Source of the DNA: Eledone cirrhosa
Lineage: Eukaryota
NCBI GenBank assembly: GCA_964016885.1
Contig: OZ024746.1
Location: 44,764,001 to 44,828,000, forward strand
Reading direction: 5' to 3'
DNA: 64,000 nucleotides
Shown here: positions 47,836-50,056 of the stretch, piece after piece
Position numbering within the stretch: position 1 is the stretch's first letter
How the letters are laid out: every line of letters begins with the position of its first letter
Made by a program: the position numbers and the translations under genes
The notes under the pieces: generated by a model
The model's database searches: none
Told to the model about the DNA's origin: nothing
Seen by the model: the letters and a program-made list of their open reading frames with translations, nothing else

Positions 47836-50056
47836 ATAATATATTTAGAAACACACAGATACATGCGGACACACACATATATACATGAATGCATCCGCAC
47901 CCAACTGTGAGTTAAGGGTGCCAACTTCACCGATGTTGCTCAATGAATGACTGGGACAGACTAATTCAGTTTGAACCAGACTGAACCAGTATCAAAGTTA
48001 AAAATACATTATGAAGAGAGAAGAAACATTTAGATATAATTAGTAATAAAATGTATCATACCTAAACTGTTCCTAAATTCCTCGACTACGTAGTTTCGTG
48101 GCATAAACAAAAACAATATATCAAAGATATAGAGTCCTTGCGAGGTCTGCCGACTTATCAAGAGGATACCTCATTTTACTAGTCTCAAGAACGCGTCTAC
48201 ACGACGTGAGAAAGAATCCCAAAAGGCGGAGGGGGAGACAGTCACGCGATATAACGGTCCGCATGTATCTGTGTGTTTCTAAATATATTAATAACTCCCT
48301 CTGGTCGAGCAATCTTTGAAGTGTGGGGACAACTGGAAAGCTTCCATTACTCATACTTCTCGCCTTCTTCACTACCTCTTCTACGGCCTCGATATGAATA
48401 CCCCCTCCGCCTCCGTGGTATTTTCTTCGTGGTTATAAGAGGTTTAGCTCTGTTTCTCGACCGTTATATCGCGTGACTGTCTCCCCCTCCGCCTTTTGGG
48501 ATTCTTTCTCACGTCGTGTAGACGCGTTCTTGAGACTAGTAAAATGAGGTATCCTCTTGATAAGTCGGCAGACCTCGCAAGGACTCTATATCTTTGATAT
48601 ATTGTTTTTGTTTATGCCACGAAACTACGTAGTCGAGGAATTTAGGAACAGTTTAGGTATGATACATTTTATTACTAATTATATCTAAATGTTTCTTCTC
48701 TCTTCATAATGTATTTTTAACTTTGATACTGGTTCAGTCTGGTTCAAACTGAATTAGTCTGTCCCAGTCATTCATTGAGCAACATCGGTGAAGTTGGCAC
48801 CCTTAACTCACAGTTGGGTGCGGATGCATTCATGTATATATGTGTGTGTCCGCATGTATCTGTGTGTTTCTAAATATATTAATAACTCCCTCTGGTCGAG
48901 CAATCTTTGAAGTGTGGGGACAACTGGAAAGCTTCCATTACTCATACTTCTCGCCTTCTTCACTACCTCTTCTACGGCCTCGATATGAATACCCCCTCCG
49001 CCTCCGTGGTATTTTCTTCGTGGTTATAAGAGGCTTAGCTCTGTTTCTCGACCGTTATATTGCGTGACTGTCTCCCCCTCCGCCTTTTGGGATTCTTTCT
49101 CACGTCGTGTAGACGCGTTCTTGAGACTAGTAAAATGAGGTATCCTCTTGATAAGTCGGCAGACCTCGCAAGGACTCTATATCTTTGATATATTGTTTTT
49201 GTTTATGCCACGAAACTACGTAGTCGAGGAATTTAGGAACAGTTTAGGTATGATACATTTTATTACTAATTATATCTAAATGTTTCTTCTCTCTTCATAA
49301 TGTATTTTTAACTCTGATACTGGTTCAGTCTGGTTCAAACTGAATTAGTCTGTCCCAGTCATTCATTGAGCAACATCGGTGAAGTTGGCACCCTTAACTC
49401 ACAGTTGGGTGCGGATGCATTCATGTATATATGTGTGTGTCCGCATGTATCTGTGTGTTTCTAAATATATTAATAACTCCCTCTGGTCGAGCAATCTTTG
49501 AAGTGTGGGGACAACTGGAAAGCTTCCATTACTCATACTTCTCGCCTTCTTCACTACCTCTTCTACGGCCTCGATATGAATACCCCCTCCGCCTCCGTGG
49601 TATTTTCTTCGTGGTTATAAGAGGTTTAGCTCTGTTTCTCGACCGTTATATCGCGTGACTGTCTCCCCCTCCGCCTTTTGGGATTCTTTCTCACGTCGTG
49701 TAGACGCGTTCTTGAGACTAGTAAAATGAGGTATCCTCTTGATAAGTCGGCAGACCTCGCAAGGACTCTATATCTTTGATATATTGTTTTTGTTTATGCC
49801 ACGAAACTACGTAGTCGAGGAATTTAGGAACAGTTTAGGTATGATACATTTTATTACTAATTATATCTAAATGTTTCTTCTCTCTTCATAATGTATTTTT
49901 AACTCTGATACTGGTTCAGTCTGGTTCAAACTGAATTAGTCTGTCCCAGTCATTCATTGAGCAACATCGGTGAAGTTGGCACCCTTAACTCACAGTTGGG
50001 TGCGGATGCATTCATGTATATATGTGTGTGTCCGCATGTATCTGTGTGTTTCTAAA
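47836..50056 (+). repeat. Three tandem 591-bp units plus a ~420-bp inverted partial unit (retrozyme- or pseudo-LTR-like)
   Basis: gtccgcatgtatc occurs at 48257, 48848, 49439 and 50030. Segment 47836-48259 is a reverse complement of part of the unit. The array ends in (TA)n. Confidence 0.97.
48552..48639 (+). ncRNA. Type I hammerhead ribozyme with U3-A8 core variant (further copies 49143-49230 +, 49734-49821 +, 48079-48166 -)
   Basis: UCCUC-UUGAUAA-GUcGGCA...UGCCAC-GAAA-CUACGUAG-UC-GAGGA; palindromic stem III ACUACGUAGU; GUC site. Confidence 0.82.

Follow-up and report, generated by a model that had tools for sequence, protein, structure and literature searches.

The window analysed here is a 64,000-nt stretch of the Eledone cirrhosa genome (contig OZ024746.1 of assembly GCA_964016885.1). 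It contains an insertion of tandem repeat units with an inverted arm, in which four identical hammerhead motifs were found (cores at 48557, 49148 and 49739 on the plus strand and at 48161 on the minus strand). The features of the insertion, in window coordinates, are as follows.

47837..48259, minus strand: inverted, 5′-truncated arm of the same insertion, 423 nt
48079..48166, minus strand: identical hammerhead of the inverted arm
48257..50061, plus strand: three tandem 591-nt units plus 32 nt, with 1–3 differences between units
48545..48550, plus strand: conserved leader, complementary to the stem II internal loop (48572–48577); predicted pseudoknot with two rival pairings (helix −6.9 kcal/mol)
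48552..48639, plus strand: type I hammerhead motif with a U3-A8 core, based on sequence, descriptor scan and conservation
48552–48556 and 48635–48639, plus strand: stem I
48557..48563, plus strand: core positions 3–9, UUGAUAA (U3 at 48557, A8 at 48562)
48564..48620, plus strand: stem II, 57 nt, unbranched, with a bulge, an internal loop and a distal hairpin, whose changes are mostly one-sided and pair-keeping
48564 and 48620, plus strand: G10.1-C11.1 pair, which opens stem II
48621–48623, plus strand: GAA of the core
48624..48633, plus strand: palindromic stem III, ACUACGUAGU; 3 bp with a 4-nt loop in the monomer, a 10-bp duplex in the dimer
48634..48635, plus strand: predicted cleavage site after C17 (48634) of a GUC, from hammerhead numbering
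48640..48698, plus strand: long hairpin between the cleavage site and the first terminus, predicted in older copies too
48714, plus strand: first fixed 3′ terminus, unit position 458, 80 nt past the cleavage site (40 of 77 ends)
48879, plus strand: second fixed 3′ terminus, unit position ~32, 165 nt further on (35 of 77 ends)
49143..49230, plus strand: identical hammerhead of unit 2
49734..49821, plus strand: identical hammerhead of unit 3
50056..50161, no strand: (TA)n microsatellite at the right end, the usual target of the 591-nt family

The unit is non-coding, with a GC content of 0.41; no ORF of 100 aa lies inside a unit, and the single ORF of that size spans the inversion junction. The insertion is atypical in that both arms end near unit position 32 and the left arm abuts a LINE fragment. 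This fragment (46740-47835), flanked by a (TA)n on one side and the left arm on the other, may have been inserted together with the retrozyme; like the copies at 34853-38313 and 40049-42614, it belongs to an L1-type LINE with reverse transcriptase (RT) and endonuclease domains. Penelope-type elements with a C-terminal GIY-YIG frame, inverted terminal copies and (TA)n ends were found at 44260-46681 and 13460-16530; these window copies contained no hammerhead according to a descriptor accepting either core, and no homology to the 591-nt unit. The window also includes an RT-bearing LINE (30304-32673) with a long open frame and C2H2-like motifs at its end, a 162-nt near-perfect inverted repeat (50330-50655, 2 nt between the arms) and a 175-nt tandem repeat (50976-51370).

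The canonical 3-8 pair of the hammerhead is C-G; catalysis requires a Watson-Crick pair at these positions, and U3-A8 is an isosteric replacement of C3-G8. A preliminary description of the locus had reported a UUGAUAA core with both 3-8 partners exchanged, and this was confirmed on the plus strand. Three helices surround the core and the ends lie in stem I, as in type I hammerheads, and all the core letters of that type (U4, G5, A6, A9, G12, A13, A14, A15.1-U16.1, H17 and G10.1-C11.1) are present. In an alignment of copies, 93.8% of the cells are paired in stem I, 95.0% in proximal stem II and 98.6% in stem III, and 47 of 48 aligned rows have U-A at 3-8. The 3-8 pairing itself, invariant at the subfamily level here, would rest on the known structure and on a paired switch in other families. 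Stem II is long, as had been described, and is composed of 2 bp, a bulged C, 4 bp, an internal loop and a long hairpin; based on fold and alignment, it is not branched as had been described. Stem III is indeed a palindrome, but the 2-nt loop proposed for it cannot close.

The window descriptor accepted either U3-A8 or C3-G8 and gave no motif in 200 dinucleotide-shuffled windows, while a looser scan added one weak candidate at 21265 on the minus strand. The motif scored below the gathering threshold of the Rfam model Hammerhead_1 (RF00163), with no match even at E-values up to 10. Weak matches to mir-268 (E 0.016) and NEAT1_2 (E 4) were below gathering and were taken as chance. A genome-wide search with RF00163 yielded 18 matches, none of which (0/18) came from the 591-nt family; all belonged to another, C3-G8 family. 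The expectation that such a motif would escape standard searches was thus supported, although the 57-nt stem II may contribute to this as much as the core.

Older copies were collected with a distal stem II pattern (471 matches), and 70 loci were taken among the first 100 matches listed. After the removal of 5 same-insertion and 2 segmental-duplicate loci, 63 insertions with 74–90% identity to the unit remained. Their core cells contained 13 mismatches out of 762 (1.7%) versus 3,546 out of 18,676 (19%) outside, and U3-A8 was kept in 55 of the 57 older-subfamily copies covering both sites. Variants shared by subfamilies were found at 0/13 core sites versus 140/483 outside sites (29%; p 0.024 for the core alone), and at 1/35 sites of the core, stem III and proximal stem II taken together (Fisher p 2.5e-4), figures to be read with the copies being related, the outside counts inflated by alignment near gaps and the search pattern touching the edge of proximal stem II. 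The palindrome, including its loop, exhibited no subfamily-level change in 48625-32. It should be noted that a non-ribozyme stretch near the terminus (48681-48699) was equally conserved.

Covariation was assessed on 47 older copies and the window (48 rows), the remaining older copies being left out because one half was absent or a filter removed them. The stem I pair 48555/48636 is U-A in 28 rows, C-G in 10, U-G in 9 and otherwise in 1. Two-sided changes were seen in 11 cells versus 4.6 expected, a value reached in 0/500 shuffles; only 2 pairs show such changes, which is not above the shuffles (198/500). The copies are related, and the stem I change represents one inherited series of events.

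Independent variation of positions 3 and 8 among genomic copies had been named beforehand as a finding that would speak against selection. Such copies exist: 11 are not U3 (5 with C3-A8, none with C3-G8), and 13 with U3 lack A8 (8 with G8). They are nevertheless uninformative, because the free position 7 was changed in 9 copies, so that single changes at 3, 8 and 7 are equally rare against an estimated total of roughly 7,000 copies, as expected of mutations arising after insertion. No C3-G8 relative with the same stem III was found genome-wide at stem II lengths of 10-70, which places the swap before the sampled family. Judging from these alignments, U3-A8 is ancestral in the 591-nt family and was fixed before the sampled subfamilies diverged. 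The proposal of selection on the ribozyme is therefore supported by subfamily conservation and stem I covariation, not by covariation of 3 and 8. We consider the motif a genuine hammerhead sequence that is under selection and probably active.

A 23-mer of the 3′ half of the ribozyme matches the 3.0-Gb genome exactly at 7,458 sites (control 0), and the family thus contains at least 7,458 ribozyme copies, which are dispersed and both tandem and inverted. Among insertions of the window subfamily, 27 of 51 are inverted. Only 2 of the 77 outer ends examined lie away from the two fixed termini (40 at unit position ~458 and 35 at ~32), and (TA)n or TATATA adjoins 75 of the 77. In 25 of the 27 inverted insertions, as counted by eye, one arm ends at each terminus. 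On the ribozyme strand, both termini are 3′ ends and lie beyond the predicted cut by 80 and 245 nt, so that this strand would be the template, in a circular or multimeric form. The tandem units each have a type I hammerhead, are non-coding with GC below 50% and yield a self-paired predicted circle, as in non-LTR retrozymes; the tandem and inverted 5′-truncated structure, the tail at one end (165 nt) and the microsatellite target are those of non-autonomous Penelope-like elements. No autonomous partner sharing homology with the unit was found among the Penelope elements of the window and ten other hammerhead-bearing ends. [quoted passage not shown]

Some loci have a different organization. L198 (G000:C2:334193137-334203130) is an array of ~597-nt units, at least 16 in number, whose variants recur with a higher-order periodicity, which points to expansion at the DNA level. 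In L199, L200, L201, L202 and L203 every unit, or both arms, share one and the same defect of the core or of stem I (U3-G8, U3-U8 or a changed position 1.1). Since all units of some insertions are damaged, either some templates can do without an intact ribozyme or growth of arrays at the DNA level occurs as well. Contigs of four sequencing runs contained both termini, and a unit-length self-closing contig was obtained from two runs at low depth; it was rejected as evidence of a circle, as tandem DNA explains it equally well. A metagenome scan gave 3 matches, none with hammerhead stems.

Rarity of the U3-A8 core, as stated in the preliminary description, agrees with the literature, where C3-G8 to U3-A8 covariation is reported for several natural examples and called rare, and where activity in vitro is mentioned by citation (Perreault et al. 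2011, PMC3088659, available part); about 1,300 U3-A8 copies are also reported from Schistosoma Penelope-like elements (PLEs) (PMC4209133, available part). The statement does not hold in this genome. Matched short-stem patterns gave 5,558 U3-A8 matches (control 64) versus 5,122 for C3-G8 (control 7), with the 591-nt family additional; duplicate ends account for 16 of the 100 U3-A8 matches listed. U3-A8 is thus not rare here but at least as frequent as C3-G8 under these patterns, which are blind to an extra base after A9, other cleavage triplets and long stems, so that a "majority" is valid only under them. In the literature covered, in which subscription papers are thinly represented, nothing was found on a U3-A8 retrozyme, cephalopod hammerheads or edited retrozymes. 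Lunse et al. 2017 reportedly may list U3-A8-type variants.

By eye, three further unrelated U3-A8 families (B, C and D) and one doubtful single motif were distinguished among the matches listed (L276-L305, L336-L346), and none of the three families resembles the 591-nt unit. Family B forms 316-nt tandem units. Family C carries a minimal U3-A8 motif in the terminal repeats of a 4.9-kb full-length Penelope-like element, assigned to the Neptune/Nematis type because of its 777-aa RT and GIY-YIG frame with a CX4CXXC linker. The sequence downstream of the family D motif is homologous to that of three C3-G8 elements (z 4.1-9.9), and on this homology the two represent a real paired switch at 3-8. Canonical C3-G8 families were also observed (L306-L334; L258-L275), one in 469-nt tandem arrays and a second with inverted copies and two fixed ends, which are separated by ~100 nt and lie in (TA)n. 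A short motif after the first terminus, noticed by eye in older copies and in families A and D, was discarded, the alignment scores being unsupportive (window z at most 1.7; the highest, 3.6, from a TA-rich copy).

Based on the above results, we suggest that a conserved U3-A8 type I hammerhead in a dispersed 591-nt non-coding repeat likely cleaves its transcript after C17 into unit-length RNA, and that this RNA likely becomes circular and is likely then inserted as a DNA copy at (TA)n by a Penelope-like RT and endonuclease; we give this reading a probability of about 0.75. Its observed basis comprises the motif, the copy number, the fixed ends, the inversions, the conservation of core and stems, the stem I covariation and one haplotype across units and arms. 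Tandem copies would be transcribed, and cleavage would be most efficient as a double hammerhead formed by neighbouring units through the palindrome, with slower cleavage of the monomer possible. The product would then be ligated into a circle, where refolding would keep the ribozyme inactive. Copying would be primed 80 or 245 nt downstream of the cut, a position that only a circular or multimeric template allows, and repeated passes round this template would produce the tandem units. The full-length Penelope-like element with a U3-A8 hammerhead and the occurrence of both cores in homologous ends of other families would count for this proposal, as would the strong folding of the predicted circle and the better energy of the double hammerhead compared with two monomers. 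Against it would stand the active fold being unfavoured in the unit context, the insertions with damaged ribozymes, the periodicity of L198, the lack of an autonomous homologue among the ends compared and the weak in vitro activity of relatives.

The folding models bear on whether the double hammerhead is obligatory. The preliminary description had raised the possibility of cleavage in multimers only, with a silent monomer, and the energies are in line with this: the stem III hairpin alone costs +1.5 kcal/mol (pair probability ~0.1 in the isolated motif), whereas two palindromes form a 10-bp duplex of −12.9 kcal/mol. For a transcript of two units, the energy of the double hammerhead (−237.0 kcal/mol) is better by 10.1 than that of two monomers (−226.9 kcal/mol), and the palindromes are already paired in the unconstrained fold (−242.8 kcal/mol, 5.8 below the double hammerhead). 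The whole palindrome, loop included, is also without subfamily-level change. However, the active monomer fold is just 1.1 kcal/mol away for the isolated motif, the predicted pseudoknot could stabilise the monomer, and the 3 bp with a tetraloop resemble ribozymes of invertebrate retrozymes, of which single genomic coral and mussel copies cleaved at ~0.8 and ~0.1 per min (PMC7229834, available part). We regard strictly dimeric cleavage as possible but somewhat improbable, and favour dimer-assisted over dimer-only cleavage.

It is also conceivable that the motif is conserved because it serves the mobilising element in protein binding or priming, with little or no cleavage. The isolated 88-nt motif folds only modestly better than shuffles (z −1.85; 10/200 shuffles as good), and in the full unit the stem I probability is at most 0.01 at all 20 prefixes (3′ ends) tried, under a nested folding model that ignores pseudoknots. 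The candidate 6-bp pseudoknot (48545-50/48572-77) is paired in 86% of cells, with one-sided changes only and none two-sided, and its leader also pairs locally or downstream. The predicted circle of the ribozyme strand is highly self-paired (z −8.2) with the ribozyme refolded, and five natural monomers have z from −3.4 to −5.8 (opposite strand −1.7 to +1.2). Such a signal would agree with the active fold not being predicted in context, with the equal conservation of other non-ribozyme stretches such as 48681-48699, and with the fact that many motifs of PLEs and retrozymes show little or no activity in vitro: in the available parts of the sources, PLE minimal hammerheads cleaved poorly (PMC4209133), and 8 of 9 Xenopus retrozyme dimers were uncleaved (10.64898/2026.07.22.740005). 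It would leave without a reason the retention of all other catalytic-core letters, G10.1-C11.1, A15.1-U16.1 and GUC, the covariation of stem I, and the switch of 3 and 8 as a pair between homologous families, as catalysis requires. We consider it unlikely. Still less probable, to the point of being hardly tenable, is an ordinary satellite-like repeat amplified at the DNA level with the ribozyme as a relic. The higher-order repeats of some long arrays (L198), the small differences between young copies and the equal rates at positions 3, 7 and 8 would suit it, but the insertions are short and dispersed, end at fixed 3′ positions, are truncated to varying extents on the 5′ side, include inversions and target (TA)n, and both structure and mutation spectrum are strand-asymmetric. 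The core, moreover, was spared while 29% of outside sites changed between subfamilies, and core conservation together with the insertion ends largely refutes the satellite origin.

Retrozymes as such, the U3-A8 variant and the idea of dimers are known from earlier work. As far as the available parts of the sources describe them, metazoan non-LTR retrozymes (Cervera & de la Pena 2020, PMC7229834; Li et al. 2026, 10.64898/2026.07.22.740005) are likewise non-coding tandem units with one type I hammerhead each, GC below 50%, thousands of copies, a structured predicted circle and a proposed Penelope-like mobilisation. The 591-nt family is unlike those described there in its U3-A8 core, 57-nt stem II, ribozyme predicted to be blocked in the circle, clear Penelope-type inversions and two fixed ends; its unit is 591 nt versus 170-400 nt typically (PMC7229834) and up to 972 (10.64898/2026.07.22.740005). 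The minimal hammerheads of the Schistosoma mansoni Cercyon PLE (PMC4209133, available part) share the U3-A8 core, the PLE context and a palindromic stem III, and in the supplement a U3-A8 motif is set against one of S. japonicum that is similar but has C3-G8. In the minimal motifs A9 is followed by an additional base, there is hardly any stem III and most occur singly, whereas here G10.1 directly follows A9, stem III has 3 bp and the units are tandem. Stem I-stem II pseudoknots are predicted in ~40% of the hammerheads of Perreault et al. 2011 (PMC3088659, available part); the one here is a predicted candidate with rival pairings. Penelope-like elements of the Neptune/Nematis type (Craig et al. 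2021, PMC8557442) are similar in their partial tandems, inverted 5′-truncated copy, one-end tail, (TA)n bias and hammerhead in the terminal repeat; compared with the elements in the available part of that source, the 591-nt family has no ORF, a tail of 165 nt versus 30-40 nt and no homology to an autonomous element among those compared.

Within an insertion, the units and the two arms have private variants in common; in L182, six such variants recur in each of the 7-8 units. This would be expected if one molecule were copied repeatedly; a homogeneous source array would look alike. At polarised sites, where older copies fix the ancestral letter, all-unit variants of 91 insertions included 17 A>G versus 4 T>C (expected share 0.34, p <1e-4; 65 unpolarisable site-changes dropped) and those of 51 further insertions 6 versus 2 (p 0.03; 43 dropped), in a post hoc test whose two sets are not independent, as 5 of 6 sites recur in both. 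Single-unit variants were symmetric (7:13 and 6:9), and an apparent T>C excess among them was gone after trimming near gaps. Neighbour preference of ADAR and pairing at the 27 A>G sites did not differ from those of all A. The A>G excess lies on the ribozyme strand and is clustered in some insertions (L182, L189, L234, L236 and others), possibly as A-to-I footprints. The bias suggests that the RNA template of the insertions may have been edited; errors of second-strand copying are a rival explanation. A wider proposal would combine U3-A8 as the majority core of this genome, in at least four unrelated Penelope-like or retrozyme families, with A-to-I editing of the RNA circle of the 591-nt family before repeated copying into DNA, the edits being written back and seeding new subfamilies. 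As a whole we regard it as rather doubtful.

The insertions provide direct genomic evidence on retrozyme movement: the ends are of Penelope type, priming lies at a distance from the cut, and the single template haplotype in all units and both arms is what the circle model predicts. Homologous C3-G8 and U3-A8 elements in one genome form a naturally matched pair in which to study how a ribozyme can accommodate the swap. Finally, standard descriptors and Rfam would miss what may be over half of the hammerheads of this genome, and since such motifs are missed, retrozyme censuses are likely too low.
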